The translations under genes and the position numbers were made by a program. A DNA stretch of 64,000 bases, taken from Laetmonice hystrix. Lineage: Eukaryota. Shown piece after piece: positions 14,477 through 62,910 of the stretch. The stretch is from positions 12,650,001 through 12,714,000 of the forward strand of contig OZ249436.1 of assembly GCA_965235115.1 (NCBI GenBank), written 5' to 3'. Positions within the stretch are counted from its first letter, which is position 1; every line of letters begins with the position of its first letter. The notes under the pieces were generated by a model, which ran no database searches, was not told the DNA's origin, and saw only the letters and a program-made list of their open reading frames with translations.

Positions 14477-17400
14477 ATGTCGACGGTAGGTTTACTGTCT
14501 TTACCTAACCTAGCTAGACTATGCCTGCTATGGCCATGTGAATATGATGATGAATATAATATTGATAGATTTAGTAGTTGGCGCAGGTCGCTTGGGCCGA
14601 GCGGTCAGCATGGTCAGGAATGCTGCAGAGGATGGTAGCCGCGTACGTGGCCGCATGGGCTTGGATTAGAAGTTAGCCCTATGCTATAGTCTATAGATCC
14701 TCGGTAGTATAACAGTTGTACGACGGTAACATTTGTAGGCCTAGATTTAAGAACGTCAGCAGTGATGTTTTAAGAGCACCCCCCCCCCCCCCCAAGACGC
14801 GACAGTTTTATGAATAATTTATGGCGCTAACGTTAGGGGCGGACCATTTTGATACGGGGGGGGGCTATGGTTTTTCTTTTAATGAGCACACTTTTTTTTG
14901 CCTCCAGGCCAAAGCTGTCTTTTTTCCCTCGCTATGATCAAACTATTTTTTTCCTATTTCGACAATACTAATAGTAATAGGCCTATGGAACAATCTTTTT
15001 TTTGTGTTTGGTGAACATGTTTTTTTTTTCAAAAAGAGCCTAGCCCTAAAATTATATGTTAATTTACATTTGACCATGAGGCCAAAATGATTAACCCCCC
15101 CCCCCCCCCAACCCATGTGTACATGACTGATGTGACTGACCACTCTCTGGTATGACCTTTATGTTGTATGACTAGTACTAGTAATAGTATGACGTGTGAC
15201 ACTCTTTGACATCATTAATATTTTAATGCACATAGAAAGTCAACTATAAAAATGTTAGAAATCTACTCATGCAATGCAATATAGGCCTAGGCCGAAGCTA
15301 AGGCATGTTGCTTGATTGAGGTGTGGCAATGTTCTAAAAACTATTACAGACTACAGTATAATAATTTTACAGGGCTCGAATTAACCGGATTCGCATTGCA
15401 ATTTGCATGCCAAAATCAGTCTATTGCGAAACAAATTAGGAGATGAGTTGCAAAATATTGTCTATTACTGCTTCTACAAACCAGATAACTCAGTAATTAT
15501 TCTGAATCGAAATTTTTAAAGTATTTTGAGCCCTGCATTAATGTTTCCCAGAGATGATGTTAACCCATGGCATGGGCCATGCAGCTGTGAACAAGTTGTG
15601 AGGTAGATTTAGTTAATTGCATAGCGGTACTGGTTAAATTTTAGAGACATGCAGTTGCCAATCAGTTGCCATAATTGCAGATTATATTTAACCAGTCACC
15701 ACTGGAGGATCAAGGGTATTAAATGTTGGTGATCATGATTTATAACTGGTTAGGTCTATGCTGAAGCTTACAATAGGCCAAGTGTCATTTGAGATCCCAA
15801 TCAGTGCTCTTTAGAGGTAATATAAGTTCGATTTTTCTACCCGTGATATTGTTCTGCCCCCCTGATATTGTTTGGCCCTCACATTGGACGACTGGGATAT
15901 TATTTTCCAGCAGACCTGGTTCCCTCTGCTGTCAATGTGAACTGTAGAGTACCTGTACGGTAAAGAATTTAAGATTCAGTCTTGTTTATTGAAGGTCATA
16001 TTGACTTGGTTCTCTTTGTAGGGTACCTACCCATTGCTTGGGTAAAAGCAGACCAAGAAACATGGTGCCTCCAGCCTGTTCACATTTTATTATACTATAG
16101 TGTTGTTTCATGAGTAATGAAATGAAACGTTTGATGCATGAGGAAATCCCAATGTACAGATAGTACGACCTTTCCAAACTTTCTTTCTCTGAATAGAAAT
16201 TTGTGTATCTTTCAATGAGAGGCTAAACTTCGAAAATAAGAAAGTTCATACATTTGGCTTAATAAAACAAAATTAAAATATTAGATCTATTTTCAAATCT
16301 CTGGCTTACTACTAAGTTACTAGTATAATATTTTTCCAAAGGGGGATAAACTCTCTCAGTATAATCAGACTGCCGAAATTCCTTTTAAAAATCATCGAAA
16401 ACCGACAAGAAAAAGATAGACCATGCTGCGTTTTCAAGGAGATTGTACATATCAATATGTACCTCACCAGTCTTGGAATGGTTCGGCCATGAGCAGCTAC
16501 TTGCCCAGAGATCTGCCACAAAAGAATGTACAGACACCCTTGTTGGGTCTTGACAGGGTCGCATGGTACAAACGAGTGTTGTATCTTGGTTGGTGAGTAA
16601 ACCTTATCAAACCTCAGTGTTCATCACTCTCTTTCTGCAGCTTCTTCACAGTCAGGACCACACAACTCTGCAGCTCCTTAAGTAATCTTAGCCCTATATT
16701 GAGGATCATTCATGTACCCCTCTTTACTTTGATTATGGACACAGAATTTATGATGCATCATTAATTCCAGGAGACATATTTGGGCTGGCATACCGACGTT
16801 CAGTGCAGTAATTTAAAGTTATGAAGTGTCTATATTTGATGACCAATCTCCACTCACTGATAACCAAGCAACTTTCCATTTAAGGCTAAAAAAGGGATTC
16901 TTGAGCGTCTGGCTGAAGGTCCCGTAATTGGGGATGGAGGATTTGTCTTTGCCCTGGAGAAACGAGGCTATGTGAAAGCTGGGCCCTGGACTCCAGAAGC
17001 AACAGTGGAGCATCCTGAAGCTGGTATGAGTCTCACAATTACTTTGTGTATAATTTATGATCTATTTCAGAGTTACTATGTGCAACTAGCTTTAATCATA
17101 TGACTGGACTTTTTTCTTGTGGGGGCGGGGGGGGGGGGCTGACTCTAAACATTTTATTTGATATTCAATGGGATGATACTTATGATGCTCTGGTTCAAAC
17201 ACAAATTCATCTTTTCATGAGGATCTTTTTTCAAATGTTTCATGTCAGATCTGAGCAGATAAAAGCAACTTTAAAAACAGAAAAAGATATGAACACATCA
17301 ATCTATTTGGATGCATAGTCAGAGATCTCCCCACCATATGCATCCAGTTTTGTCACCAACCACTCCAGTGGGTACTTTTTAGGACTGTAGTGTTCGTGAA

Positions 17401-20400
17401 CACCTTATGTATCTAATCTCTGACCAAGACAAAATCTTACCTTTCCTTTGATACTGATAACAGGATTTGAGTATGCCTCTAGCTCTCTCTAGAGGAGCCC
17501 TTTAACTGTAGAAGCTGCAGTGGGCTGATAGGCATCATGGGGGAGGGGGAGGATTGGTTTAGATTATCATAATTCCTTGTGAACCATGGTGTATCTGTCA
17601 ACACTGGCAGGAGCTGGGGGTCAAGTCCAGGTCAATCTGGTGAAACCATCTACAGCAGGCAAAACTTGTCTGTTATCAGTCCTGTTAGCCTATCCCATGA
17701 TAAGTTAGCGGTGTGGTCAGTCGGTGTGCAGAGGTAACCCCACTCAAATTCCGGACAAAACCAGTTCTATCCAGTTTGGCGGTTAGGTAGGAGGGCAAGG
17801 ACAGTGGAAGCTGTACAAACAGCAGATATGGGTTACGGAGGGGAGTTGAGTGCAAACTTGCTGTCTGTTCAGGCATCCAAAAACGATACAAAAATGTACC
17901 TATTTACAAACAGAAAGCGTTGAAGCTACCCAACTCATGAAGAAGGCCCAGTGGTGTTGAGGTTGTTAAAAGTTTTTATTTAACAATAGAACTTATGTTT
18001 CGACTCTAGAAGTCTTCGTCAGGGTTTACAAACAACACCCTTAGATGCAAAACCTGATAAAAAGTAGACAAAGGTTTTAGGAAACATGCATGGTAAATCT
18101 ACAAGACAGAAATTTAAATCTGTTTATGTAAGTAAAGATGTATATGACTTGAGACATAGATGACCCCCCCCCCCCCCCCCCCCCCCCCGCAAGTGACCTG
18201 CATACCAACACCAAAGCCCACTGAACCACTGACGACATTCTGTAATGTTAGAACTGAGACTCGGTAAAATGAGTTAGAAATACTCATCATGCAACCCCCC
18301 TCCCTTACTGCTCTGCTGGTTCTGCCTGGGTTTGCATGACCTGCATTTAAAATCTTGGAATTTGGAACCTCAGTGCTGTCTGCACTAGGGATCATTACTA
18401 ATACCCCGAGGGGTGCAGTTTTGGTACACCTGACATGTTACACTCAGTATACCTTCAGTTTCATGATCCAGACTAACATTTAGTTTCACACACACAAAAA
18501 TTGAACTAGTTAGTATAAGTATAAATAATTTTATACTGAGAATGTTTGTGTGTTAAGTATTTGAAATGAAATAAACAAACAAATAAACTGGTTGCAGGCT
18601 CAGTTGCAAGTATGTCTTGTACTTGTATAGATCTCGCGTTTTGTTCATCATTGCATGTTTGAGGTGAGCAAATGAAATTTTTTCTAACTCATTGGTTATT
18701 ATTGCAGTGCGTCAGCTGCATCGTGAGTTTCTCCGGGCTGGCGCTGACATCATGCAAGCCTTCACCTTTTACGCAAGTGATGACAAGTTGGAGAATCGTG
18801 GTAATGAAGCCCAGTCTAAGCACAGCGTAAGTTCACTGCCCTTCACTACCCTGGCGATCTTCTAGCTGTTTGCCAGTTCTAAGTATAAATATCGATCAAA
18901 ATATAAAGGAAAGCAAAATAATATTTATGCATGCATGTTAAAATGCCTAATCTATGGTTAAAGGTATTTTATCATCCCTTTTTATATTGTGGTTGCCGTT
19001 AATGGAGGTACCAAAAATGGATTTTCCTATTAGTATAAGAAGGAAACAAACCGCATACAATATAGTTTGGTCTTTAATTTGAAGGGTGAAGCCATCAATC
19101 AAGCAGCCTGTGAGCTTGCCAGGGAAGTGGCCAATGAGGGGAATGCCCTAGTCCTTGGAGGCATTTGTCAGACTCCATCATACTTGAGTGGCAAAGGGAA
19201 GGATGCGGTGCAGCAAGAATTCCGAAAACAGATTCAAGTTTTTGTCAAGAATGAAGTTGATTTCCTGCTGTGTGAGGTTTGTGTAAAATAATGTCTGTGT
19301 CGATACTTTGGTTAATTTTGAATGGGCCAAGTTTGGGAAGTATTCACCAAACCCAAACGGAAAGGGAAGACTATTAAGTAATCTGAAGCTGGTTAAGTTT
19401 AATTTTTGAAACATCTTCTACAACTATGACTGATTGGAATGTTTACGTTTATATGGTATCTTTTTTTTTAAAGTACTTTGAGCACATAGAGGAGATGGAG
19501 TGGGCGATTGGGGTGTGCAGAGAAACAAAGCTCCCTGTAGCTGCAAGTATGTGTATTGGACCTGAAGGTGACCTTCACGGAGTCACAGCAGGAGACTGTG
19601 CTGTCAGGATGGCCAAAGCAGGTAGGAAAATCTATATCCCTGGTATCCCTGGTGGTTAGGTTGAAAATAAGACCAGAAGAAGGGGTTGGAGTGATGAGGA
19701 ATGAGATGGTATATCGTACCTATCAGTACCAAAAATAATTTAATCGCCAGGTAAAATATCTGCATTGAAAGGTCTTATCTCAACAAAACTACATGAAATG
19801 GGATACATCATATTCATCTCCTTTTGAGTCAAATTCAGCTTTTCGCACTTTTTTGTGGGTGTTTGTGTTATGATTTAAGTCCTTCAATTTCTAATTTTAG
19901 CAGCATTGCTCAGTGTGAACATTTGCATTATGTTTTATTTCACTCTGACTGGGATCCTGTTTGTGAACATGTTCTTGGATTATGGGTGCACATGTTTAGT
20001 TTGTGCTATGTACTATCTGGATGAAGTCAGTAATTTTGGTTTTGTGGGGTTTTTCACAGGCGCAGATATTGTGGGCATCAACTGTCACTTTGACCCCCAA
20101 ACGACCTTAGTGGGGATGAAGAAGATGAAAGATGCCTTAGACGCAGCAGGTCTTAAACCTTACCTGATGTGCCAACCGCTGGCATTTCGGACTCCGGATG
20201 CTAACAAACAGGGCTTCATTGACCTTCCTGAGTTTCCATTCGGTAAGTACCATCAAAACTGCTACTGTATCGCATAGTATTTTTCACACAGGTCACAGGC
20301 AGGAAAATGCCAACAATTTAAAACAAAAAGCATTAGGGCAGTGAGTTTTGTTGCTTTTCCTGATATTGTGTGTGTTTAATTTTCACGAAGCTCGATTTGT

Positions 20401-21090
20401 TTGATAGGCCTTGAGCCAAGGATATGTACTCGGTGGGAGATGCACCAGTATGCCCGTGATGCATACGACATGGGCATTCGGTACATTGGAGGATGCTGTG
20501 GGTTCGAGGCTTACCACATCCGGGCGTGTAGTGAAGAGCTGGCAGCGGAGAGGAAACGTCTACCCAAAGGTTCAGAGAAACATGACATGTGGGGAGGTGG
20601 ACTGAAGATGCACACCAAACCGTGGGTGCGTGCCCGGGCTCGCAAGGATTACTGGCAAAATTTGAACCCAGCCTGCGGTAATGCTTACGCTGCAGCTTAC
20701 TCCAAACCCGACTCATGGGGATGCACTGCGGTATGTTGTGTTTTAAGACTGGTTATATGTTGTATACATGTGTGTTTGTTTCCTGGGGTTAGGTTTAATG
20801 GCTGTAATATAGGAGTCGTCTGGCATGATTACAGACATAATCATGTAGAATGTGTTTAATTAATTGCAATAACGTTCCTGATGACTAAATAGAGCCTTTG
20901 ATTTAAAATTGAAAAATTCTAGTATCCACTGGTGTACACATGTCTTGTTATACTAAAATGTGATAAAGCTTTGTTTTCTTTTCAGGGGGATAAACTCTTG
21001 CAGCAGAAGGTTAATACCACGACAGATGAAGAGCTCAGTGAACTGTTCAGCCGTAACCAAACGTGTTCTGAAGGAAATGGAGAGCGTTAA
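14477..21090 (+). CDS. BHMT: Betaine-homocysteine S-methyltransferase, 8 coding exons, 405 aa
   Basis: Exons 14477-14485, 16885-17023, 18708-18826, 19085-19276, 19474-19621, 20060-20242, 20408-20730, 20986-21090; all GT-AG, phases consistent, total 1218 nt. Translation has [56 protein letters not shown] and GGCC (Zn ligands), [30 protein letters not shown], all typical of BHMT. The 9-nt first coding exon is the least certain. Confidence 0.97.
15370..15535. mobile_element. hAT-like MITE in BHMT intron 1; short member of the family at 30687-31656
   Basis: CAGGGCTCGAATTAACCGG..CGCATTGCAATTTGC ... AAAGTATTTTGAGCCCTG; both ends are shared with the longer copy. Confidence 0.75.
17975..18028 (-). 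mobile_element. Penelope-like terminal-repeat remnant with a degenerate hammerhead ribozyme core
   Basis: Minus strand CTGACGA-A-GACT(tctag)AGTC-GAAAC..., followed by AATAAA; stem I does not pair. Confidence 0.5.
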
Positions 21091-30037: not shown

Positions 30038-30686
30038 TTCAACATTTAATCAACTGCTTCACTCAATGTAGGGTGCTCCCTGGATTTAACCCTGTAAAAA
30101 GTAAAAAAAAAAAATTGTTATAGATAATGGTAAACGGTTATCAATATAGATCTATACAATGAATGAGAATAGTCAAACTCAAATACAAAGATTTTACCTA
30201 ATTAACACCCAATTTGAGACAAAAATAAAACTCACCAGAGACATGACCAAAACAAGAACCCAAGCAATTTTTTTGGATTTGGTAATTAGTTAAACTGTTG
30301 CCAACTAAATATACACTGCCTAGTCTAATGGGTAAGCTTCATTAAATTTTTCTGGCAAAAGAAGTATTTAAACGAATTTGACTAATTATTGACATGAAAC
30401 AATATAACATGTTTGGTATTATTGGGTTAAGGATATGCCTTGGGTTAGTGTTGGTTTAGTCTCAAATTGGTTGTTAATTAGGCACTAATTAGATAATCTG
30501 CTATTTTTCCGGAAGACATCATCCAATAGGAATCCAGTATTGCAGTAACAGGACCAATCGATATGCTGACAAAATAACCACTGCCAAAAGTTTAATTAGC
30601 GTTTAATTATTTTGGCCTCCTCCTGCAAAACAGATACTGGTTGATCATCAGTCACAGTACGTCATAGTACCAGCATAGATATAATA

Positions 30687-31656
30687 CAGGGCTCGAAATA
30701 ACCGGGTACGCATTGCAATTTGCGAGTGAAAATTAGCCTGTTGCGAATCAAATTAACATATGAGTCGCAATTTTTTGCGAATCAACGTCATATATTAGAG
30801 AGCGCAGTGAGCCGCACAGCGGCTCGCAAAGCGAACTCTATGACAACATGTGTGAAAGGGTAGCCAAGGCGACACATACCATCTCACAAAAAATTTTCGG
30901 CGCGTATAACCGGAAAAAACAAGGAGCAAATCCATGGAGGGTCATGTGACCCTTGCAGAGCGTGCATGATTTGTGACGTCACAATTATCAACAAACAGTC
31001 GCGTGAGTGTTTGTTGGTTTTAACCGTCCACTGTGACGCCACAATATCCCGACGTTCGGTGCTGCTAGCCTAACAAGTGAGCAGTCCTGACATTGCATAT
31101 TGTATGGAAAACAAGCCCAGTATCGCCCGAAGTAGTCAGAGTGATTGTATGCCTCCCGTCGCTGCGCTTGCCCTCTAGACCTGTAGCACCTACATCATAT
31201 TATTGTGCCAACTTATGATCAGTTGCAATGATTGCTAATGGCGGGCTCAGACAGAGCGATGCAACGTGATTCCTTGCAACGGCAACAGTCGCAAGGAATC
31301 GCAAGTTGCACACGACTGAAAGACGGGGCAGCTCACACAGAGCAACATGACCGCTGCTACTACAGTGATCCTGTTACGTCACAATGAGCTTGTGACATTG
31401 TAATTGTCAAGCGAACTATGAATGATTGTCTCTTATTGGTTATTACCGCTAGCAACGGTCCAGTCACCAAAGCAACCAGTTGCGACCAGTCGCCAAATAT
31501 TAAACATGTTTAATGTCTTGCGACGCAACTGCAACTGGCCAAAATCGCGTTGCAAGGTAGCTCAGACAGGCCGACGCAATGATAGAGTTGCGTCGCGTCG
31601 CTCTGTCTGAGCCGCCATAATGTATAATCAAATTTTTCAAAGTATTTCGAGCCCTA
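30687..31656. mobile_element. hAT-like non-autonomous element upstream of the JMY start codon (putative intron 1) with a nested Harbinger MITE
   Basis: CAGGGCTCGAAATA ... TATTTCGAGCCCTA; both ends shared with 15370-15535. Confidence 0.7.
31239..31617. mobile_element. Harbinger MITE with TAA TSD, nested
   Basis: TGGCGGGCTCAGACAGAGCGA...TCGCTCTGTCTGAGCCGCCA; TAA at 31236-31238 and 31618-31620. Confidence 0.85.
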
Positions 31657-32035
31657 GATAGAAATCTATATATACCGTCACATTATAATTAATAAATTGA
31701 AAACCAAACGTGTCCAAAGTCTAGACTTAACACCTCCTATTTTTCAAATTGCCAAATCAGGGAGGAGGGTGATGAGCCCAGTTGCTGGTCCTTGTGCTTG
31801 ACGTGTGATCTTGAAAAGAATGACTGCCTTGCCTATATCCATTGCATGACGTAGAAATTGTAGATGAGCCTGGCCCAAGGCCAAGCCAAGCCCAGGCACT
31901 GCCCTGGCACCACCAACATAACATAACAATAATGGCAACTGTTGATGTCTTCGAAATATCACACAATTGAATGTGTCATGCACTAAGCCTCCAAACACAT
32001 TGCTTCTGGTTCACAGTTCTGGCTTCGAGTCTTAC

Positions 32036-33340
32036 CATCACTGATCAATGATTCTCTTCCCTGTAGATGTCTACTTTGTTGGAACATTGTGACCTCATCT
32101 CAACATGACGAACATGACCAGACATATGAAGTTCGCCGTCTGTTATTTGATAGTTTAGTATGAAATACGCGCTTTCAGACTACATATCATGGAGCTATGA
32201 AGTATCTTATTTTCAATAGGAAATCAATAGGGAACCCCAGTAACTCACGCCAAAGTGCGTGAAAACGCGTGAAAACGGCGCAGTGGTGTCACCCTATTAT
32301 CGCTTAACATAGGCGCAGATAGGACGTCTGTATTCAACCCATGACTACACTTGCTGGGGTGACTATTTTGATCAGAAAGGAGGGTTAGACTGTGAAACAG
32401 AATGTAGGAAAGGCTTAGAAAAATGTTCGGTGCCCTAGCAAACTCTTAGATATTTTAAAATCAATTAATTAGAATTAAAATCGAGAGACCCAATCAGCGA
32501 CGTCAGGAACAATGCACAATAGCGCTACGTCACAATGGTCATTTGGAATGTGATCATAACGGGCCTAAATATTAATGGCGGACGGTGCTTCGCTTCGCCA
32601 GTTCAAACGTCTCTAACTGCTAAAATACACAAGGAAGAACGTTGAAACGTGACATAAGGGGATAAAATATTGAACCAAACAATGTCACTGACTTAGAATT
32701 GTTTAGCAAGGTCCCCCCTTTCTTAATTCAAGCGCTGTCATTGCCGGAGATCGGTGAAGTTTGTGACGTTACAATTTCGTACCCTCGTAATCTGACAGTT
32801 TTTCCGTAAATCTTGAAAAGATTAAGTAACAGATGTGAATGCCATATACTTTTATAGATCGAGGATTACTGTAAAATTCGGTCTGGATAGATTCTAAAAT
32901 TAAGAGTTGTGGTTTAGTATTTCTAATGGGCCGTTTTTATTGGGGCCTGGCTTGACCCAAGCCAAAGTCAATGAGTGGGCGATAATGGACTGACACCATG
33001 CGACTGCGCATGTCCGAGACTTTGGTTCCCTATACATTTGTATAACATTTGTATAACAGTTCCTTTGAAACTACAAATGGGGGGAGTCATCTAAAACAAA
33101 ATATTACAGCCAACTCTACATGTAGAAACTCCAAGCCGATCTAATCGTGACTTCCGCTCACTCAGTCATACAGGAAGCGGAAGTCCACTCTGCAAGGAAT
33201 TTGGGTGATAATAGGAGTAGAATCGGCAGAATCAGGGAGTAGAATGACAGTTCAGTTCAGCAACTAGGTTGCTATTGCAGTGTTGGACAGAGCCAATATA
33301 GACTAATCCATACAAAAGCTAGCGAACAGCCGTGAACAGA
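32036..33340. promoter_or_regulatory. Head-to-head promoter region of JMY/WHAMM (-) and KXD1 (+)
   Basis: Candidate non-coding first exons: minus donor G|GTAAG at 32036/32035 (matching acceptor at 30092/30091) and plus donor A|GTAAG at 33340/33341 (acceptor at 34401). ETS/GABP-type CTTCCG near 33151 and GGAAGCGGAAGT at 33173-33184; partial NRF1-like TGCGCATG near 33005; CpG-rich. Confidence 0.55.
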
Positions 33341-33578
33341 GTAAGAAAATGCCTAGGTACTACTAGTCTAGTGTAGACTGTAGTCAGTGTAACTCAACAA
33401 TTGTACTGTAGTGTAGAGTGAAGTGTTACTGTTGCTGTGTTGGTACTACTACTACTACTAGTCTGTAGGTCTGTACTGTAGTGTAGTAGTAGACTCACAC
33501 ACCACTGGCACTGTACTGTGTCTGTAGTGTAGTCACTAAGCATGCTAAGTTATAGTGTAGGCAGTGTTAGGTTAAGCT

Positions 33579-34113
33579 AGCTAGTATCTCACTGGCGAAT
33601 TAGCGACAATTTTCACTTGGAATCGCACTGAATTGGTACATGCGACACATTTGCGTATGTCGCACTGCGAATAAATCATGACATTTGTATGACATGTGCA
33701 CGACATTTGCGCAACATTCATGCAAATGTGGTGCAATTTTGTTTGTCACAATTTAGTCACAAAGTTATGTCGCAAATTGTTAGCAATTCATTCTGAACTG
33801 ATTCACAATTTTGTCTCCAATCAGTTACAATTTAATTTCATAGGTCGCTAACCCCTCGCAAAGTTTGTCTCACATTTCTCGCAGTTTCTGACTCACAAGA
33901 CACCTGCAACAACTCTCCGACTATTTTGAGAGAAAATTTGTCACACCAATTTTTTGAACATGTTCAAATTTCCAGCGACACGAGTGCGAGGCCCTGTGAC
34001 TCACGCGAGGAAATCAGGAACCGCCGTGAACGTTTCGAGACACTTTGGAAACTCCCTCGCTAATGCCGTTCTCAATTTCTCGCCAACAGTTGCAGCCCAG
34101 TGAGATACTGGCT
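33579..34113. mobile_element. Harbinger-like MITE in putative KXD1 intron 1
   Basis: AGCTAGTATCTCACTGG ... CCAGTGAGATACTGGCT; internal TCGC/GCGA-rich repeats. Confidence 0.75.
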
Positions 34114-34414: not shown

Positions 34415-36862
34415 ATGGCTGACTTGAGTGATGTATCAGAGAGCACCAATAGCAGCAGCATCCAAGGACCACGAGCACCAGATGTCTTCCTGGAAGCTGT
34501 TACCAGCGAGGTGAATAAAGGAGATGTCTACAAGATGGTTCAAGCACAACAGCACATGTAAGGAAAGGGTGTAATTCTGGGTGAACCTTTTGAGGATTTA
34601 TCACTTCCCACAACTGGTCTTCATCATATAACAGCCCTTCCCCGTTTTATAGTGTAAAGCCCTAAAGAACAGTGTATTGACCAGTCATTTGGCCATTGGC
34701 CATTGGACAATTGGCCAACGAGTGCAGTGGTGGACATTTGGCCAACAGATAATTTATGATGGTATATTATTATCCTATTTCCCCTGTGGGAAACGGGATC
34801 TTGTAGTTGTCAAATTTCGTCTTCAGTATTCTTCTCATTCTTATTCCCGTAGTAAGACTTGTCTTATATCTCACTCATTTTTAGATTGCTATGGATACTT
34901 TGATATTTGTGGCCAAACTACCCGTGAAGAATCTCTTGGGTTGGGCCCTTCTTAGGTAGTTTGGCACTTTTACCAATTTTAGCTGAGAATGCAGACATTT
35001 GATAGAAATGCAGCTCGAAGTCAGGTCGGGACCTTAGACCACTGCCCCAATCACAGCAGTATCTGGACAATTAGACATGCAGACCACTCTATATGTAATA
35101 CTTCTCGTAAAGGACATAAAAGACTGGTGCTTCTTCTTTTTTACATTTGAATCTGAATGTATATAAATAAGTTATTCAATTGATATAAATAAGTTCAAGA
35201 TATCCACATATATCAAAGTATCCAGAGCAATCCTATTCAAAATTGAGCGAAATATAACAAGTCTTACTATAGGAATTCGTTTTGGAGTTGTTGAAGTAAG
35301 AGATAATCGTGAATGGCTTTAAGAAAAGTTATGATTTAAGGATGCCTACATTCCAGAAAAGCAATTCACTGGCAACACCTTTGAGGCTTTGTCACTGACA
35401 AATTGACTGCCAAGGTTACTTGTTATTTCACAGGTTGATGCGCTTTGAAAAAACAAATGAAATGTTGTTAAACTTCAATGGGCTGTCAAAGGCAAGGTTT
35501 GACACAACACAGCTAGAGTTCCGTAAGCATACACAACTACTGGCAGACATGAAAGTTGACCTTGATAACGTTTTCAAGAGGATCAGGTTTGTATTACACT
35601 GCTTATGTTTGACAGTGGTGATACTTTTTTTATTGATGTATTCACTTAGTCAATTGCATTTATTTATTTTGTTTCCATGGCAGCAGGGGAAAAATGGGGA
35701 TGATGATGAATTGCCAAGAAGTAAATACATAAAACTAAGGATTTGACAAAAATCAGGCATGATTGATCAATCTTGAACACTTAACTTACTTAGTACATAA
35801 CTAGAGAAGATAATTATAGAAGCATGGGAAAAAATAGGCAAGCAGTACATTCTATAATGAAAATGCAGTTGTATTATATAAACATGATCACATTGCTGTA
35901 AGATAACTGGCAGGTATTTAACATGTCGGGAATACATTTACCAAATTTAATGTTACTTGAGAAGATTTTTAACAGTAGTGTACGTGTTCGCTTCTAGGAC
36001 ACTGAAAACTACATTATCAAAGCAGTATCCTGAAGCTTTCACAGGTAAGATTATAACGTCAATACAGGTGTGCATTACATGATTTTTATCTAATTCTCAT
36101 AGATTTTATATTCAGAGAGTCATCACTCGTGTTTATGAGGTTGTAGAAAGGTTTCATGTTTAGAGCTATTTTACCTCACAAACCCTTTTGCAAACTTGTG
36201 TCAAACAGCACTCTTTGTGAATTTGCACATTTAAAATCAGCTTAAAACATGATGATTGTTTATTTTGAAACGTGGATGTTATTTAAACAGGGATCTATAG
36301 GGTAAATATGTGGTCATTGTGACCAAGAATGCTATTATTATACAATGATTAAAGCCTTGAAGTTGAACCGTCATAAAGCAGGGACTCTCCTTTTTTCCGA
36401 TTTTCCTTGGAAATCCCTGTTTTTTCCAAGGCCCCTTGTCACCCGTTAAGCACTAGCCATCTCCAATACCCTTTTTTGTGTGCACTTTCATACCTGATGA
36501 AACTTAATACAGAGCTCTATGGACATTGTAGTTTGATCATTAATTTCAGATCAACATTGAATTTTTCAGCATGCAGTGATGTTTACAATCTCATAGAAGA
36601 TGATGAAGAAGAGGAAGAGGATGATGAAGATGCACCTTCTGCATCAGGATCGCAACATCCTCAGGGGAGTGACTCACCACGTCTTGCACGGCAGATCACC
36701 GTCATTGCTGCTCCAAAGAAAGACCAAACAAAGCTTAGCACAGGCATAGAGAACAAGCCTGATAATATTGATCAGGCAGAAGATGGTTCAGTTTTAGGGG
36801 ACAGCGATCAAGCTGATCAAAAGCAAACAAGTCAAAAGTCACTAGGCCTTAAGCGACATTAG
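34415..36862 (+). CDS. KXD1: KxDL motif-containing protein 1 (BORC subunit), 4 coding exons, 211 aa
   Basis: Exons 34415-34557, 35434-35586, 35998-36044, 36570-36862 (636 nt). Translation: [39 protein letters not shown]...F.KHTQLLADMKVDLDNVFKRIRTLK..LSKQYPEAF, with KVDL as the KxDL motif and an acidic low-complexity tail. AATAAA at 38423. Confidence 0.93.
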
Positions 36863-39725: not shown

Positions 39726-42206
39726 ATGAGTGCATCTGGATCAAGAAAAACTAGGCCGACTAGATGTAGCACCACGACAGCATCTTCACGATCATCAGGA
39801 ACAGGGCAGGTATGAATTTTGTTCATGCATATCAAGTACATTTTCTTAACTAGCAAATTTAACCATCAGTTCAGTTCAGAATAAATAAAAATGCCCCCCT
39901 CCCCAGTGGGAAATTAATTTGCTGAAGCAGTGAAATATTGTACATGTATACCGGTACTATTTCAATGTACTTTTTTTTTCTTTTTCCAACAAAACTACAT
40001 GAAATGTTGGAATCAGATATTTGCAATAATAACATCCACTTTGCCACCATAAAGCTCCTTGTCAGCTGTGATGGTTATGTTTATATTTTTTCCAGAATTC
40101 AACAATCAGCAAGTCTGTTGCCCCAGCAAGGAGGAGTGCAGCTCTTACAATGCCTTCGTCCAGCAGTATTATACCACAAGGTAGATAAATTATAATAAAG
40201 GTATTAATTAAAAATTATAGTATAGATCTAGAAGGTCTATGCAAAAAACTTTTGTTTAGGCACATGTGTTTTGGTTTATAGGAAACAAAAGAATGAAAGA
40301 ATTTTGTTGTTGATATTTTGATATAAGTAGATATTGGCTACAATTGTTTAAAAATGTTAGTGTGTGGTTGTGTACAATTGTGCTAATTTCATTACATCTA
40401 GGATATAAGGCAAGAGCTGTGCAGCCAGCAAAGAATTATGATGTTGTGTCATTTGCCCGTACAATGAATGATGACTTTGGGCATCGTGTCAAGAAACTCT
40501 TTGATCCTGAGAGAGAAGCTGCTTTGGAGGCTCAACAAACTGGTGAGATATGATACAAATCTGGTGACAAAGAAATAGCTGCCCTATAGGCTATAGTTAT
40601 ATAGTAAGGTACATAAACTTAAACTTGGAGGGGCTTTTACAAAAAGCGAAGGGCTAAAATAGTCTTACTATCACAGAGCCCACAACTGTTTATGTAACAA
40701 CTTTAATTCCATAATCCAGATTAATTCCTATCACATAGGTCTACTTATTTGTCTAACCCTGCTGTAACTATACATCAGTTATTTAAGGGCCTGTGTAATG
40801 TAGTGCAGTTTCTCTCATGTGGACTTATCTTATTGTGTTATATCTTACTTCACGTTTCCATTTAATATCCAGGGATGTATATTGGATGGCGGTGCCCAGA
40901 ATTTAATCATGACTGCCAAAGAGTGGGGTCAAACGGAAAATGTTTTTGTGGGCACCTGTTGATGGAGCACAAAAACTACAATGGTATGTTACAGAAGTAG
41001 GTGTTCCAAGACCAGCAATGCTAGTCAGTGTAGACAGTTACATGTCATACATACAGGTCTGTATCCATTATCCATTAAATCATTAACATATATCCAGACA
41101 GTGCTTATAATCGTTTGACTCAAACGTTGGAAAGAAATAGTTGTTTAGTTTCTGTGTTTTTTTTCTATTTGAGCCAAGACTGTCCTGGTTCCTTGCAATC
41201 AGCCTGCATGCACGTGTAAAGGTTTTGCGTGGATTCCATCCAGACCTGAGGAAGTTGGAGAATATTGGTTCCAGAAACGGCAGAATTTTGATGTATCCAC
41301 ATGGCGCTCAAAATGTCGCTGCAAACACAGTCATGAGGAGCACGAGCCAAATGGTTTACACAGATGCCGTTTCAGAGGTTAACTTGCATTCTAAATTCAG
41401 ATATAATACTTTTGTTATAAGCACATGAAAACTAATACGAATAATAGTGAGAAATAATGTACCAACAAATGTCTGCAGTTTTTAAAATACAGTGTAGGGG
41501 CCTAGATACATGCAATTTTTTATTTTATTTTTATACTCTACAACCTCCTAAATTACCAGTAATTTTTTTTTATAATCATATTTTATTGTTACATTTTATA
41601 AACGCTCTGAATGAATCACAGTGCGTGAATCTCCATTTTAGGATGTGGATGTGGTGCCTTTAACTCCAATTTTCTGTGTGCCGCATGTGACCGTCATTGG
41701 GAAGATCACCAGACATTCTTTGAGACGGCTATGGAGAGGCAGAAGAAGGGACTGCCTGTGGGTAGGTTTGCATCAGCACCCAAAATATACATGCCATGAT
41801 TATCTCATCCTTGAAAATGCTTTAACATGAAAAGTTCCTGCCAAAAGTACAGAAATAGGCAACCCCTGGACAAAAGCGGGCTTAGTATATCTGCTTCATG
41901 GAAATTGTATACTATTTATAAACATCCCATAGAGAGCAAATAAAATATCCTGACAATGTTGCATCATTTTTAGGTGCAGAATATTTGCCGTTTGCGGAGA
42001 TCCCATCCCTGAGAAACATGGTTCTGTCAGGAAAAGATGACGAGGACATGTCTTACATGGCCATTAATCCAGGACCGTTTGCTTCAGCGCCCTCAGCTAT
42101 GCGCGCGCTACCTAGCGGCTCCATGCCGCAGGCTGCAAGTAATGTCATGCCACCTGGTGGCAGATCCCGTCACGCCAAGACCAACTTCAGCCCAGTCTAC
42201 GATTAA
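39726..42206 (+). CDS. FAM221B: FAM221 family protein (FAM221B-like), 7 coding exons, 325 aa
   Basis: Exons 39726-39809, 40096-40180, 40402-40542, 40873-40983, 41174-41377, 41642-41761, 41974-42206 (978 nt). Translation: LFDPEREAALEAQQTGMYIGWRCPEFNHDCQRVG..KCFCGHLLMEH..PC....C.CKGFAWIPSRPEEVGEYW..KR..FD...WRSKCRCKHSHEEH..CGCGAFNSNFLCAACDRHWEDHQTFFET..ER...GLPVGAEYLPFAE, matching the Cys/His-rich FAM221 domain as I remember it. Confidence 0.9.
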
Positions 42207-54342: not shown

Positions 54343-54375
<33 letters not shown>

Positions 54376-54409: not shown

Positions 54410-54441
<32 letters not shown>

Positions 54442-57400
54442 TTGCTGCTGATGCTGTGGGGAGGAGGGCTGTTGTGGTGACGTTGATGGGGGAAAATTGA
54501 AGCGGTTTTGTGCATCAATGAACTCCTGGCTGTCGGTGAGGCTTGCCATGCTAACGGGCGGGTACTGTAGGTCAGGCACAGTCACCATACTGTAGAGGCT
54601 ATTCACAGTGCCGTTTGTGGCAGGCAATGTACCGTCTGGCAGCTAGAAATAAGGATAAGAGTACAATATCATTTACAAAACAACAGACTGCCCATAGAAC
54701 AGTGATGTCCTACTCCTGTAAAAATATGTCATTGGCAAATATCACAAAATTTATGCTTTTTAATCTTTACCAAGCATCACTCACCTGCAAAATCTCAATG
54801 TCATAGTTTATTACATGCCAACATAAATATCAATTCATAGGAGAGTACAAAAAAATATAAATTCCATGGTAAAGTGCCCTTTCTGAGATCTGGTTCCACT
54901 ATACACCTTGTAAGTATTTATGAATGTTTAAGTTAATGATCTTTTAACTGACAATCTTGTCTGAAGCAAGAAAGCCTAATCAACAATTACTACATGAAGT
55001 GAAATACATGTAGTCCAATGCACACTGTTCTAAGTGTAAATGTTGGCCACACTTTTATTACAGTGAACCAACTAAATCTTCATAACATTATCACATTAAT
55101 TAATAGAGCAAGGCAGTAATACATACCATGTTAAATTGCTCAAACTGATGCTGCAATGCATTTGTTTGTTGTTGTTGAATGTAGTATGCGTCCGTGAATC
55201 CTGTGCCACTCATGTTGCTAGGCGACAGGTTGTTGGGAGACTGGGAAGGCGAGTATGAGGGTTGTGAAATTGGCGAGGTTGGCGACTGCGGACAGTTCTC
55301 TGTCTGCCCATTCCGGTACTGTGTCAAATTGGTCCCCTACAACATAACAAAATCAAGCCATTGTATCACTCATTCCCTGCTTGTAAGATCACAAAGAGAA
55401 GTTCTAGTGTTGTACTGTTAATATGGTTTTCATGGGTAACAAAGCTGCAGCTTCTGGTATCTGGAATGGGGAACATCTTCTCCATATATAACAAGTAAAA
55501 CAACTAGACCTGTCGTGGTGAAAACCACGATGGATCCCATCCCTTGGGGGGCATGTCCGTATGACGTAGTAAGGTCATTATCACGTTTTTAAATGTTGGT
55601 GTCAATTGAAAGAGCATGTATGACTTCCTATTCGTGTTCAATAGTAACCATGGCTTTATCTCCCACCAGTTAGGAGTTAAAGGCCTTAGAAAATATTGAT
55701 GATGTCATTATTACGTCATACGTCACACTATGTCATCAAACTTGGCTTCGAATAAAATGGCATATGACTTCCTGTTTGTGTTCAATAGTAATTATGGTCC
55801 TATCTTGCACCATTCTTGAATTATAGGCCAAAGAAGACACCAATGACGTCATTATGACGTCATACGTCACGCTATCTTATAAATGTTGGTGTCAATTAAA
55901 AGAGCATGTGTGACTTCTTATTCATGTTCAATAGTAACCATGGCTCTATCTTCAACCGTTCTTGAGTTATAGGCCGTAGAAGATACAATGACGTAATTAT
56001 GACGTCATATGTTACGCTACATAATAAATGTTGGTGTCAATTGAAAGAGCATGTATGACTTCATATTCATGTCCAATAGTAACCATGGTTTTATCTCCCA
56101 CCGTTTAGGAGTTATAGGCCTTAGAAAATATTGATGACGTAATTATGACGTCATACGTCACACTACGTCATCAAACTTGGCTTCAAATAAAAGAGCATAT
56201 GACTTCCTATTTGTGTTCAATAGTAACTATGGTCCTATCTTGCACCGTTCTTGAGTTATAGGCTATAGAAGATACCAATGACGTCATTATGACGTCATAC
56301 GTCACGCTACCTAATAAATGTTGGTGTCAATTGAAAGAGCATGTATGACTTCCTATTCATGTTCAATAGTAACCATGGCTTTATCTCCCACTGTTTAGGA
56401 GTTATAGGCCCTAGAAACTATTGATGACGTCATTGTACGTCATGACGTTACGTCATGTGACGTCATGACTCATTGCCAAATCAGAGTTGGTGACTATCAA
56501 CATGTCCACCAAGTTTGACTTAGATATCTTGAAAAACGAGCGAGATATGACTCCTGGCGTCATTATTACGTCATACGTCACGCTACCTAATAAATGTAGG
56601 TGTCAATAGACCGTTTTCCGTTGCCGGTTGCTATGCTGCCTCGTTTTGAAACTCGGTGCAAGCGCCTAGTTGACGACCCATGTCCGCCATAGTTAACCTA
56701 TGGACAATCACTCGAGAGAGCTAATTTTGAACTGCTCACAAAACCTTGCAAAATAGAATATTTCGAAACTTGGACCGGCCCACGACTACGATCATCCCTC
56801 CAAGAACGCGGTGTGACTATTTCTTGATATAATAAAGCGTCACTGGTAGAGTTATCAAGTTGTGTTTGGGACCTCGAACTGCCGATCGACAGCAGCCTGG
56901 CTGACATACACGGTCCGGCTGACTGGTCTGCCGGGGGTCAAGCGCCGCGGGTGGCCGGGGCGCTTGTTTAGGTGCAAGGCCAAGGGGTAGCCGTTCACCA
57001 GGAGCTTTTCGTTTGCGGCATGCCATCATGACCAAAACAAATTATTAGTTTATTATTTTAAAATGTATTTTTATTGAGGCAGGAACCAGCTGTTGATTTC
57101 TCAATTTTAGGTATAGGCCTATTCGTCAGTAGCCTAATTTTTTTTACATTTAAGGGGAGATATTTTACATACATATATTAGCCTATATACGGGTAAAAAT
57201 CAATTTTACATAGCATATAGGCAGAATGTTACATACTGGGAGAACGAAGATTTTTTACATACGGGCAGAATTTTTACACATTGCGGGAGATTTAGACGGG
57301 CAAATATTTTTAGGGCCTATTACGATAGTTTTACACATGTAGGCTATGAGGGGAATTTTACATAGGGTAGAGATCTACGGGTTGTATAGCCCTCCTCTCT

Positions 57401-60400
57401 GTCGCACGGGTCCGGGGAAGGTAAAAAAAACCTGACATCATCCATGGATGGCCTTGATTTACTGTTTCCTGCCCCATATTTACTGTGACTTGCACATGTT
57501 CCATACCAACAGTGCTTGTTAGCTGGCATTAATGGTCAGTATTGAAATGTTTTCGACTGTCAGGTGTCTCGATGTTGCTAATATCGCTCAAGTCAAAGTT
57601 CCGACCGTTCAACTTCACACCACGATTAAAACTTATTTCTGCCTGTTACCGAGATTCCAACTGACTGTATCGTATCACCCCCATTGTTTTATTAATCTGG
57701 CCACCCCGAACTGCTCATATTGACACGGAGAAACTCAAAATCCCAGATTTGCTCAACACCCCTTTCTTCGTTGTTCGCTATTGCCTAAGCGCTAGCAACG
57801 CGGTGCGCTTGCACCGACTTTGGCGTCGCTAGGGAGCTTGTAGGTGGCGCTAGTAGTAGTTCGGAAAATGGTCTATTGAAAGAGCATGTATGACTTCCTA
57901 TTCATGTCCAATAGTAACCATGGTTTTATCTCCCACCGTTTAGGAGTTATAGGCCTTAGAAAATATTTATGACGTCATACGTCACGCTACGTCATCAAAC
58001 TTGGCTTCAATTGAAAGAGCATGTATGACTTCCTATTCGTGTTCCATGGTAACTATGGTCCTATCTTGCACTGTTTTCGACTTATAGGCCATAGAAGATA
58101 GCAATGACGTCATTATGACGTCATACGTCACGCTACCTAATAAATGTTGGTGTCAATTGAAAGAGCATGTATGACTTCCTATTCATGTTCAATAGTAACC
58201 ATGCCTTTATCTCCCAACGTTTAGGAGTTATAGGCCTTCGAAAACATTGATGACGTCATTATGACGTCATACGTCACGCTACGTCATCAAACTTGGCGTC
58301 AACGGAAACGCTACGTCATCAAACTTGGCGTCAACGGAAAGGGCATGCATGACTTCCTATTCGTGTTCAATAGTAACTATGGCCCTTTCTGGCACCGTTT
58401 ATGAGTTATAGCCATGAATAGCCAAATTGACCACTGTTCAAAATTTTGAAGTCACGTGACTCAGCGAATATAGGTCAAATCAATTGTACCGAGCCGGATT
58501 CCTTTGAAACTCTCCTCAGAGATTATCCCTGTGCAATTTCATAAAATTTTAATGAAAATTGAGGAAGAAGTAGGGATTTAAGCATTTTCTGACCTTTGAC
58601 CTAGTTTTATGACATGTCTAAGGTCAAAGGTCAAAATATTTCCAAAATATGAATTAGGTCCTTGCCCAATTCTAACAGTGTCATTAGTTCTTGGAAAATC
58701 TCCATATTGACTTTGAAAACCGTCCAAATAATCACAACACGAATGACCTCATGACGTCATGACGTTACGTCATGTGACGTCATGACTCATTGTCAGATCA
58801 GAGTTGGTGACTATCAACCTACTCACTAAGTTTGACTTAGATATCTTGAAAAACAACTGAGTTATGACCGAGTTATGACCCCTGTTAACAAATTGTTTAC
58901 TACTACTACTACTACTACTACTACTACGCAAATAATAATAATACGGAAACCGAAACCAGACAATTTCTAGATCCCATCCCCTGGATAGGGGATGGGATAA
59001 TTACAGGACTGGCTGTAATGACATCACATCATTTCATATAACATGCACATAATGTCTTTAAGAAACATAGGACAGCTCTTATGGCTTAAAGATTTGATTG
59101 ATAAACCATAACACGATGATTTACTTTATGAAAACAGTGCCTAGGTATAAATATACCTGATCATTCTAAGATCTCTGTAAATGCGATGGTTATCATGTGC
59201 AAGTTCAGGCCTCGAATTAGAAGTTGAAAGGGGCACAGCTAAAACTGCCGTCGGTACATAAGAATCAACGTCAGATTTTTCCAGGGCACGGCAGCAAATT
59301 TACGATACATGGAAAAGGCACGATAGCAAATGCCATCGATGCCGTCGTGTAATTCAAGGCCTGCAAGTTTGCAACTGCAAAACATAACTCTAATAATTTT
59401 ACCACCTGCCCCGGCACAGAATAGATACTTTGGTCCTTGAATTCATCTAGGATTCTGCTTACCTGGGAATTTGTCATCTGACTATTTACATTAGGCTGAA
59501 GCCGATGTTGTGACCCTAAACTGGGTCTGCCTGGACCTCCGTGTCCATGTTGACCATGACTGTGAACATGAGGTGGATATGGTCGGAACTGTTGGTGGTG
59601 TAACCTGGTTTCTGGGTTCAGGCGGTGCTCTGGGGTCAACCGGTGTGAGTCTAAAATGCAGCCCTATTTGGGCAACAATAACATGCACCACACAACATTC
59701 AGAGGCAGCAAAAATAGCAAACAACATCTGCATCTATACACTACCAAAGTCATGGTAACTATCAAAACATAAAGGTACTGTGCCAACATAAAAAAAACAT
59801 TCTACACTAGCTCATCGTACATGTATTTAATGTACTGGAGGCAAAATGATCACAAGTTCCAACACCAAAAACAATGATGGCAATTTTTTTTTCCAAAACC
59901 AATTTATATGTTGTTTATATCCCTTTCCCTACTGTAGCAACAAAATGTTATTTATTAAATTATGTAAGCACGTGGTATGAATTGCCAGGACGCAATTAAC
60001 TATTTCATCAATTTCAAATGACTCTAAAAACAAGCTCGAGCTCTTACACACTGTCCAATTTGTTATGTATATGTACATGATGAACTTCCTTCAATTTAAA
60101 AAAAGAAATGACAGTCAGCAATCGACAGGAAAGGAACCAAATTCATGGAGATACTTTTCCAAGTGACTTGAACAACTTTAATCTATAATTAGTAAATGCA
60201 ACCATTCTCACTAACTGAAATATTGCTTTGTCTGTGTGTGTGTGATTGGGGGGGGGGGGGGGGGGGGCGTAGGGGGATGTTATCAGTTTGCCCTACTTCA
60301 TTGTGCTGATCTAGTTTCACAAAAGAAATACTCTATTCTTTCATCCCTCTGCACGACAAAGACTTCATATTCTTCCTTGTATCAAAAAGAGGGTAAAAGT

Positions 60401-62910
60401 AGATGGTTGAAAATTTAAATTCTTAACTTGTCATCCTAGATCACCAAGTTCTCCTGATAAAGAACTCTCTGACATACACAGTATAAGACCCACAATCCAT
60501 GCAGCATGCATCATCCCCCCACCCCACCAGTTCACTCTTATTTTGGGATAACTGAATTTTAAAGGAATCTTTTTAAAAGAGGCTATTCATAGGAAAATGT
60601 CAAAAGTACTTGGACATTTTCAACAAATTTTGCTTCTCTTTTTGCAATTTACTGTGAGATACATATCAGTGATGGCCGATTCCTAACACCCGACGCCCGG
60701 GGCAAGTTGAGTGCATGGTCGGGCAAGTCCAACAGACCAAAGACAATAACCTGATGGCTAGTGCTCTGACCCAACATAAACTTAGTAACAAGTATAGAGG
60801 GCATGTGGATGTCAGAGCCGGGCAAGTGGAATTTTGTAGTCCACTTGTCCTGTGGCAAGTGATTAATTTGAAAAATCGGCCACCCCTGCATGTACCTTGA
60901 ACAAAATAATATTTGTTATGTATGTAGGCCCTATCCCTTCTCAAAGACCAATAATACCAAAATAACATTATTTTGCCTGTATTACTATTAATTTCCTGGT
61001 AGACATAGCCTGAGGCCTAAAAAATTGGGTAATGAACAAATAGAGAAAAAGACACGAGTACACTAGGTAGTACAACTCAACAAGCAGGTAGGTAAACTAC
61101 TAAAACGACAGACTAGCCAAATAATAAAAGACTACAACACTACTTGATTAGCCACCAACATTTCCGATCGATTTAGATACAACTGTCCGACATTCAGACT
61201 GTATAGATTATGACCATGGCTCTTCATTGAAGACACCTAAATATTCTTTCATCTGTCCAGGTGACAATTTTGATTCTTTAGACTGCACTTGTATCTAGTG
61301 ACCTTTCAATTTTCAACCGGTCCCTAGTTAAAGTACAGTTTTGCCACTAGATGGAGCTGTAAAGCAATCAACTAGCGCCCTCTAGTGGAGCTCACCTGGA
61401 CCACGTTGTGTCCTATCTGTGTGGGACTGCCATGGAGGACGAGTGGGCTTGGTGCACCCGGTGATTGACGACGGCGTTGCCCTGGAGATGTCTGATTGGC
61501 TCTTACCATGTGGTGGGCTGAGGTTGGTGATAGGTTGCCCGGGTTACTGCCTGGCGAGTACTGTTGCTGCTGTTGTTGCTGTTGTTGTTGCTGCTGCTGT
61601 TGCTGCTGCTGTTGCTGTTGCTGGTCCTCTACATCTAGTGGGGTAACCATTGGCGACGGGAAGTGTAGGTTGGTAAGGTCAGGTAGGGACCCCGTGTTGT
61701 TGGAGATTGGCATGCTGTGTACACCGCTCTCTTGTTCAGGTGAAGGGTATATGCTTCAATGATATCAATAAGCAGTGGTCAGCAAATTTTTCAACAGGCT
61801 GTTAATTCAAGATATCAAAAGGCCATGAAACCATTTGAATCAAACATCCAAACACAATCACAGCTATAAGAATATCATTACCATGAAAAATTCAGGGGGG
61901 GGGGGTCTATGTTTCCTAGAGGGGTGCAGGGGTCGACAGACTTTGGGGTGGTAGCTTAAGCGATTAGGGGTAGGCTTTTGGAAAAAATATTACCAGAAAA
62001 CATTTTTCAGGGAGTAACTGCATGAGCCTGCAGGAAACCCTGGTGGTGTATAGGCTCACTAACTTATTAGGTAACATGAGCTATTTACAGAAAGAGATCC
62101 AATACATCTAAAAAAGCAAAGGCTGCATGGATGAGAGAGTCACAGAATATTAGCAAACGGTCCTGGACTCAGTGACAAATTTGTATACAAGTATCACCAG
62201 GTCAACACGACAGAAAATATCAACATGATTTGCACAATTACATGACTTGCACATTTTCATCCTCAAGGAATTATTGTTGGCTATTGTTGAATATATGTTG
62301 GCTGAGGGATGGAATACCTCATGTCTGTCGAATGAGGAGAGTTATGTCTATACAATCTCTCATTATCATTACTATGCATATTGTCATTGTATGGGCGAGA
62401 ACTACTGATCCCATTACGAATGGAATGAACAAACAGCACATTCTCACCCTGATTGGGTAGTCTGCTAGACTGCTATGCAAAAAACATTCCAGGTCATCGT
62501 TCTATTGCACTCTCTATAAGGGGTCCAACTAAAACCTGTCACTGCCCATGTTACTACCTTGAAATCTAATTTATGCCAAACAACCTGCAGTCATAATATC
62601 CTGATGGGGGGAGGGGGCAATGGTCTAAGGCTCTGGCTTGTGGCCAGAGGGTCTCTCACCTCTAAGTTCAAATCCCCGAGGACGTAAAAACCCCAATTCA
62701 CACCCAAAATCATATGCTGTTTCACATGGTGTAATGATGTAGAAATAGTTGGCCACTAGGTGTCTCTTCCACTCCTGGCAACCCTTATTCCATCTTCTTT
62801 ATTTTAGTTTTATAAAAGACTCTCATTATTTAACTCATACGTGCAGAAAAAACGACTTACTTGATGCCTGGGACTTCACAGGATTTGGGCCTTGACTGCA
62901 CCAACTGCTG
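50813..62910 (-). CDS. CRTC1: CREB-regulated transcription coactivator (CRTC/TORC), 3' part; 5' exons probably lie beyond the window end
   Basis: Exons (minus) 62910-62861, 61753-61396, 59663-59463, 55336-55127, 54642-54249, 51030-50813 (TAG); phases consistent. Motifs [54 protein letters not shown] and C-terminal [38 protein letters not shown] are CRTC hallmarks. Likely a single invertebrate co-orthologue of CRTC1-3. Confidence 0.95.
51256..51673. mobile_element. hAT-like MITE with 5-bp TSD in the last CRTC intron
   Basis: CAGGGTTCATAC...GTGCGAACCCTG; TTATA on both flanks; repeated TTCCAGGAC subterminal motifs. Confidence 0.8.
54340..54456 (-). repeat. Coding CAG/CAA repeats (interrupted polyQ) in CRTC
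   Basis: CTG/TTG runs on + translate to [15 protein letters not shown] in the CRTC exon. Confidence 0.9.
55503..59000 (+). mobile_element. Helentron-type non-autonomous element (HINE) with an internal ~145-bp tandem array, in a CRTC intron
   Basis: 5' hairpin TCGTGGT-gaaa-ACCACGA and GATCCCATCCC near 55533; ~10 units anchored at TGACTT 55621, 55765, 55911, 56056, 56200, 56346, 57891, 58026, 58172, 58350; (ACT)n near 58900-58927; perfect 3' stem-loop ATCCCATCCCCT-ggat-AGGGGATGGGAT ending 58998; no TSD seen. Confidence 0.8.
56608..57874. mobile_element. ISL2EU-like (PIF/Harbinger-related) deletion derivative nested in the HINE array
   Basis: TIR AGACCGTTTTCCG...CGGAAAATGGTCT; AT duplicated inside the array motif GTCAATTGAAAG; + 56756-56890 SAP-like remnant; - 57529-57410 THAP-like remnant. 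Confidence 0.8.
59206..59363. mobile_element. hAT-like MITE with 6-bp TSD
   Basis: CAGGCCTCGAATTA...TAATTCAAGGCCTG; CAAGTT at 59200-59205 and 59364-59369. Confidence 0.8.
60667..60888. mobile_element. hAT-like MITE, probable 5-bp TSD
   Basis: CAGTGATGGCCGATT...AATCGGCCACCCCTG; flanks CATAT and CATGT (one mismatch); repeated GGGCAAGT motifs. Confidence 0.75.
61561..61623 (-). repeat. Coding CAG/CAA repeat, 21 Gln in CRTC
   Basis: 63 nt of CTG/TTG triplets on + read as polyQ in the CRTC frame. Confidence 0.9.

Follow-up and report, generated by a model that had tools for sequence, protein, structure and literature searches.

A head-to-head JMY/WHAMM and KXD1 gene pair in a five-gene annelid locus whose vertebrate counterparts lie in one paralogon

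In the genome of Laetmonice hystrix, the single gene corresponding to vertebrate JMY and WHAMM lies head-to-head with KXD1, and the same arrangement recurs on a metagenomic contig from a different animal of the same annelid-type clade. This pair is part of a run of five consecutive genes (BHMT, JMY/WHAMM, KXD1, a FAM221 family gene and CRTC), of which all vertebrate loci fall, as judged through neighbouring ohnologues in published gene lists, in one paralogon. The explanation towards which we lean, with confidence a little above even, is that of one ancestral chromosome carrying a tight old JMY-KXD1 pair, within a looser neighbourhood that was split in vertebrates by reciprocal loss. A block of all five genes as a fixed unit is not upheld, as their order varies among relatives.

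Gene content and layout of the locus

The window (the whole stretch of 64,000 nucleotides of contig OZ249436.1 that was analysed) is eukaryotic genome DNA with spliced genes and a GC content of ~40%. It contains the five genes consecutively within positions 14477-62910 in the layout BHMT> <JMY KXD1> FAM221> <CRTC (Table 1), where spliced models and Pfam families agree with the initial annotation that the genes are contiguous within ~48 kb. The gene models consist of exons joined at GT-AG borders, and none of the five has internal stops; one exon of the JMY/WHAMM model was taken from tblastn, and for its exon 6, which had many stop-free candidates, the choice was made by eye. The JMY/WHAMM protein comprises an N-terminal domain, a coiled middle, a polyproline stretch and a WH2-like plus acidic tail, and KXD1 has 26 homologues out of 30 candidates. 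Three of the four exons submitted for the FAM221 gene matched the FAM221 Pfam family, which is also the top match in the Atlas; Pfam, two Atlas searches and the PDB gave no separation of FAM221A from FAM221B, and the gene is taken here to be of the B type. Exon 5 of this gene (41174, +) has a GAG acceptor in the predicted model. The CRTC model stays in frame only with a 40-base exon (60977-61016, -) that has a GC donor, and its 5' exons probably lie beyond the window.

Table 1. Features of the window, with positions counted from its first letter
Feature	Position	Strand	Description
BHMT	14477-21090	+	8 coding exons, 405 aa; PF02574 (S-methyl_trans)
JMY/WHAMM	30037-23887	-	9 coding exons, 732 aa; PF15920 + PF15871 (WHAMM-JMY_N, JMY)
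High-copy repeats	30124-33443		fill most of the spacer between JMY and KXD1; summed contig depth 1,565-23,890 (run X1)
Candidate bidirectional promoter (putative)	33896-34100		CpG observed/expected 1.15, outward-facing donors
KXD1 (KxDL)	34415-36862	+	4 coding exons, 211 aa; PF10241
FAM221 family gene	39726-42206	+	7 coding exons, 325 aa; PF14753
CRTC, 3' part	62910-50813	-	7 modelled exons, 485 aa; TORC_M + TORC_C (Pfam)

Neighbouring coding regions are separated by 2.8, 4.4, 2.9 and 8.6 kb, where BHMT and JMY are convergent, as proposed initially and borne out by the strands of the models, and JMY and KXD1 are head-to-head. Between the genes, 144 ORFs are 47 aa or longer and none matches Pfam, which is a weak test for extra genes between the five, as only 5 of 15 coding-exon ORFs returned their own family. 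The 14.4 kb that the window contains upstream of BHMT gave no sign of DMGDH, which was to be sought in the flanks (0 of 150 ORFs scanned, out of 181, and no motif match; also a weak test). This upstream region (1-14476) is apparently gene-free and repeat-rich, and frames at 3039-3724 (-) resemble by eye a decayed reverse transcriptase, with no Pfam match. Between 19500 and 39400, every one of 30 bins is covered by Logan contigs of run X1, with no single contig spanning the stretch; the sequencing runs behind this depth represent one sample, maybe the window's own source. Single-copy bins in run X1 have a summed contig depth of ~40-100, against 157,000-440,000 for an extremely high-copy repeat at 36764-38091, between KXD1 and FAM221.

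A CRTC intron has 15 perfect TGACGTCA palindromes, most of which lie in two arrays (55590-56465 and 57967-58782) of a ~145-bp unit; the window has 17 such palindromes against 0.7 expected. The palindrome is presumably a CREB site, here inside the gene of a CREB co-activator. The arrays are probably a mobile or satellite repeat, and a feedback role is conceivable.

The initial annotation regarded the five genes as orthologous to the vertebrate ones, which is supported by quick trees for JMY and BHMT, by homology for KXD1 and by Pfam alone for CRTC. In the JMY/WHAMM quick tree (63 rows, where rows with fewer than 200 aligned residues were left out), the window gene belongs to a clade of 12 rows (SH-aLRT 96) that also holds Capitella, Owenia and four metagenomic loci (L001-L004). 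Vertebrate JMY and vertebrate WHAMM form sister clades (99), and amphioxus comes next, outside them (80). By this tree, the window gene is co-orthologous to both vertebrate JMY and WHAMM. Among invertebrate deuterostomes, JMY accessions come from Branchiostoma, Antedon and Strongylocentrotus. Its first exon is 55% identical to that of Capitella and 46-51% identical to those of molluscs, and the whole model is 47% identical to Capitella over 537 aa. The covered parts of the literature describe a single WHAMM/JMY gene in invertebrates and the origin of vertebrate JMY and WHAMM at the 2R duplication (PMC3298513), and a published table places the two in one ohnologue group (PMC7530604). BHMT groups with a Lamellibrachia BHMT (SH-aLRT 97) in a quick tree of the window sequence and 28 of the best 120 of 625 matches. 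As the trees put the window among annelids, any gene order that it has in common with vertebrates would go back to the ancestor of bilaterians and not merely to the time before the duplications.

Two side observations concern the JMY/WHAMM family itself. A "JMY-like" protein of the sponge Corticium candelabrum (XP_062516308.1) is 24.6% identical to the window model over 537 aa (E 6e-38). The covered part of PMC3298513 places the origin of the family at the onset of eumetazoans; given the sponge match, the family may be older. Two Capitella JMY records (ELT97635.1 and ELU14640.1), located on different scaffolds, are identical across the aligned N-terminal region, probably because a haplotype was left uncollapsed or the gene was duplicated very recently.

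The JMY/WHAMM-KXD1 pair and its spacer

A metagenome scan with the JMY alignment returned at least 29 loci. Of the 29 listed, 28 have too little upstream flank, and contig L004 alone extends further than 3 kb upstream of JMY. On L004, KXD1 (-, ~5294-4005) and JMY (+, 9995-15265) are head-to-head, so that the arrangement is found in the one informative contig (1/1) besides the window, with a distance between the two start codons of ~4.7 kb against 4.4 kb in the window. The L004 JMY exon is 56% identical to that of the window, which indicates a different animal of the same annelid-type clade. JMY and KXD1 belong to different Pfam families and are thus non-paralogous. A frame in the L004 spacer (8716-9841, -) is a candidate Tc1/mariner-like transposase. 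A scan of prokaryote genomes with the JMY pattern gave no relatives among 287 pattern matches.

In Octopus bimaculoides, the JMY (XP_014777382.1) and KXD1 (XP_014777391.1) records are 9 records apart, where accession order alone is the proxy for position and one species of one had both accessions to compare. As a control of the proxy, seahorse and turtle have the known neighbours BHMT and JMY on one scaffold, at distances of 2 and 6 records. None of the named BHMT matches among the best 120 of 625 is from a species with a JMY or KXD1 accession to set beside it. A proximity of 9 records is expected by chance with a probability of 6-9e-4 genome-wide, and of roughly 1-4%, by our own estimate, if JMY and KXD1 merely share a chromosome. 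Linkage of the two genes is thus seen in annelids (the window and L004) and, by accession order, in Octopus; the head-to-head pair is probably ancestral to spiralians and plausibly bilaterian in age. No paper was found on JMY/WHAMM-KXD1 linkage or JMY-WHAMM synteny in a literature whose relevant supplementary tables were covered in part. The supplement of PMC13121700 has no match for these genes, Table S5 of PMC7530604 (1,538 pairs) has none by gene name in the part covered and may use other identifiers, and among the matches listed for WHAMM, KXD1, BORC and the lysosome, there are BORC papers with KXD1 and none with WHAMM.

The surroundings of the pair differ between the two annelid contigs. 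L004 carries two of the five window genes, with IQCH beyond KXD1 (226-2920, +; PF24923, E 6e-36) and a MALT1-like gene beyond JMY (~19000-20835, -); BHMT, FAM221 and CRTC have no match on this contig, which is 20.8 kb long, and could sit a few genes away. Human IQCH is on 15q, in the same paralogon again. The adjacencies that the initial annotation expected in other invertebrates thus hold for JMY and KXD1 (on L004, and in Octopus by accession order), and BHMT does not adjoin JMY on L004. Among molluscs and brachiopods, Lingula scaffold1 and Lottia sca_1 share 12 orthologues, which include F221B and none of the other four genes (PMC4595640, Supplementary Table 7). The idea of an intact ancient five-gene block finds no support in this list or in the L004 flanks, which differ on both sides.

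In the window, both JMY and KXD1 have a splice acceptor immediately before the ATG, and the acceptor preceding the JMY start codon, at ~30091, implies a putative non-coding JMY exon upstream. The stretch 33900-34100 has the CpG ratio given in Table 1 against 0.36-0.44 in the five gene bodies, and of the 18 consensus donors in the spacer, those at 34100 (+) and 33896 (-) face outward. The CpG-rich stretch and the outward donors together suggest that transcription of the two genes may start within ~200 bases of each other. DNA comparison of the window and L004 spacers gave no convincing similarity (best E 0.048), and ETS-like motifs are no more numerous than expected by chance (22 of 100 shuffles). 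Two such motifs that form an inverted pair (33150/33177) were rejected as promoter evidence, as the window has 3 matches against 1.5 expected and the pair lies in a high-depth repeat bin. In the covered part of a survey of ancient gene pairs, head-to-head is the commonest and best-kept orientation, which is ascribed to shared promoters (PMC3514665).

Vertebrate counterparts and competing explanations

The sources cited for vertebrates are drawn on for the parts that were covered. The order BHMT-JMY-HOMER1, with THBS4, is reported in pig (PMC10741191), which agrees with the initial annotation that BHMT adjoins JMY. In human the two may be co-oriented, in which case their convergence in the window would point to a local inversion, as proposed initially. 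Human 15q25.2 contains CPEB1, AP3B2, FSD2, WHAMM and HOMER2 (PMC7487592), while KXD1, CRTC1, COMP and HOMER3 are among the candidates around 14 nearby markers in one region of chicken chr28 (PMC7379350), in accordance with the proposed closeness of KXD1 to CRTC1. Sheep FAM221B is 0.12 Mb from TPM2 (PMC6334744). Paralogon 7 (Lamb 2021, PMC8040251), which corresponds to human 5q14 + 9p13, 19p13, 1q21-22 and 15q, comprises HOMER1/3/2, CRTC1/2/3, THBS4/COMP/THBS3 and TPM2/4/3/1, so that the three HOMER genes do mark these regions as paralogous. FAM221B at 9p13 had been treated as an outlier, which it is not: TPM2 (human 9:35.7 Mb), THBS4 (5:80.0 Mb) and HOMER1 are in the same copy of paralogon 7 (PMC8040251), and 9p13 is therefore the same post-duplication chromosome as 5q14. 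WHAMM and CRTC3 share human 15q as proposed; they are no close neighbours, as WHAMM is in the 83.2-84.8 Mb region (PMC7487592) and CRTC3 at 90.5 Mb (PMC8040251), in genome builds that may differ, and at a distance of megabases their link is one of macrosynteny only.

Taking the genes, their orientation and orthology, the L004 pair and the vertebrate placements as its established ground, the favoured explanation would run as follows. All five genes would derive from one ancestral bilaterian chromosome, still whole in this annelid and quadruplicated in vertebrates as paralogon 7. JMY/WHAMM and KXD1 would have been tightly paired, head-to-head, since the annelid-mollusc ancestor or earlier. What keeps them together would most likely be a bidirectional promoter that both use, since a break between the genes would cut both starts. 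BHMT and CRTC probably lay near this pair in a looser ancestral neighbourhood, where the order drifts by local rearrangement, and FAM221B is most likely a same-chromosome passenger. After two vertebrate genome duplications, reciprocal loss would have left JMY (with BHMT) by HOMER1, WHAMM by HOMER2, and KXD1 with CRTC1 near HOMER3. The initial reading of a neighbourhood older than the duplications is thus kept as regards orthology, the shared paralogon and the recurrence of JMY-KXD1, and is given up as regards an intact five-gene unit.

How far the neighbourhood around the pair may be due to chance was estimated with a model in which the ancestral chromosome carries 500-1,500 families that are fully shuffled within it, where chromosome and window sizes are assumed. 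Four of five consecutive genes within 15-40 ancestral positions are expected in 0.2-90 windows per 10,000 genes, so that a selected five-gene window can be chance, and a named pair is adjacent with a probability of 0.13-0.4%. These figures bear on a second explanation, a serious possibility to which we give distinctly less than even credence, in which JMY and KXD1 were joined in the spiralian stem, BHMT, FAM221B and CRTC are chance neighbours from the same ancestral chromosome and the proximities in vertebrates are coincidental. By and large, non-clitellate annelids retain the bilaterian linkage groups and not the gene order (covered part of PMC11371463), and since ancestral chromosomes are kept, the origin of the five genes from one paralogon is expected on that ground alone. 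The number of windows that the model allows and the different flanks on L004 also favour this explanation, as do the block with BHMT and JMY labelled 'Vertebrata novel' in a 49-genome survey, with no KXD1 in the part of its tables covered (PMC8851819), and the supplement of PMC7530604, where the part covered has JMY once, in the ohnologue table, and no KXD1. Two separate coincidences are, however, required in the same run of five genes. One is that BHMT adjoins JMY, as it does in mammals, at the low probability given above; the other is that the third HOMER has both KXD1 and CRTC in its vicinity. Moreover, the published surveys would overlook a pair split by reciprocal loss, as they rely on blocks of three genes or on pairs that survive in human. 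The covered part of PMC8851819 reports 256 new bilaterian blocks against 45-56 in shuffled genomes, largely kept in lophotrochozoans, and the loss of 84% of bilaterian-novel blocks in vertebrates, for which its authors cite duplication and paralogue loss. Real ancestry is likelier than chance for the proximity of BHMT, JMY, KXD1 and CRTC.

A third explanation, that of a single ancient block of five genes, maintained as a unit and split up between the vertebrate paralogons, is improbable. All five genes map to regions of one paralogon, and the closeness of FAM221B to TPM2 in sheep, together with the 0.2 Mb between CRTC2 and TPM3 in human (PMC8040251), may be a trace of FAM221B-CRTC proximity. 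This unit is nevertheless already contradicted within annelids, by IQCH and the MALT1-like gene on L004. The Lingula/Lottia list also speaks against it, and the covered part of PMC8040251 places TPM2 29 Mb from THBS4 in gar, CRTC1 2.6 Mb from TPM4 and CRTC3 27 Mb from TPM1 in human. An assembly artefact or misidentified genes are very improbable: no Logan contig spans the repeat-rich spacers and the B type of the FAM221 gene is putative, but the multi-exon models lack stops and match their Pfam families, and the same JMY-KXD1 layout is found on L004, in a different animal.

The fullest version of the favoured explanation, in which JMY/WHAMM-KXD1 is an unrecorded bilaterian head-to-head pair with one promoter, its BHMT/CRTC/HOMER neighbourhood being largely kept here and separated by reciprocal loss in vertebrates, is a tentative proposal that we hold to be rather unlikely in its entirety.

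Relation to known conserved gene neighbourhoods

KXD1 is a BORC subunit, and WHAMM and JMY act in autophagy. If the pair is real and driven as proposed, an Arp2/3 activator and a BORC subunit for lysosome positioning would be made together, which hints at an old tie between WHAMM/JMY and BORC in autophagy and lysosome traffic; a promoter shared across bilaterians would suggest that branched-actin nucleation and lysosome positioning are regulated jointly, which is a testable lead for cell biology. The locus also provides a concrete and easily checked case of gene order predating the vertebrate genome duplications, where reciprocal loss can conceal ancient pairs from human-anchored surveys.

The single-copy invertebrate WHAMM/JMY gene of Kollmar et al. 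2012 (PMC3298513) is the same gene as in the window, and the string 'synten' has 0 occurrences in the covered main text of that study. Paralogon 7 (PMC8040251) covers the regions of all five genes at chromosome scale and without gene order, and the rows covered have no entries for JMY, WHAMM, BHMT or FAM221. The bilaterian microsyntenic blocks that vertebrates have lost (Robert et al. 2022, PMC8851819) are, in the part covered, likewise gene-dense lophotrochozoan runs of unrelated genes, which were dismantled in vertebrates by duplication and paralogue loss, as the window is read here. Such a block is defined by at least 3 orthologues with at most 5 intervening genes in two species, whereas the window's relatives have been seen with at most two of the five genes; block 1516, which holds BHMT and JMY, is vertebrate-novel, and KXD1 is absent from the part of the table searched.

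A further parallel is provided by the conserved ancestral microsyntenic pairs or CAMPs (Irimia et al. 2012, PMC3514665, part covered), in which, as in JMY-KXD1, unrelated genes stand side by side across phyla. Both are head-to-head, with a shared promoter, putative here, as the likely constraint. CAMPs require at least 4 major lineages, whereas JMY-KXD1 is seen in two (annelids directly and one mollusc by accession order), and JMY and KXD1 are not adjacent in vertebrates. One of the CAMPs is a head-to-head co-regulated pair involving BHMT2, DMGDH=BHMT2 (PMC7530604, Table S2, part covered). Involving no new principle, the window is one more locus of a known pattern, that of ancient microsyntenic pairs dismantled in vertebrates.
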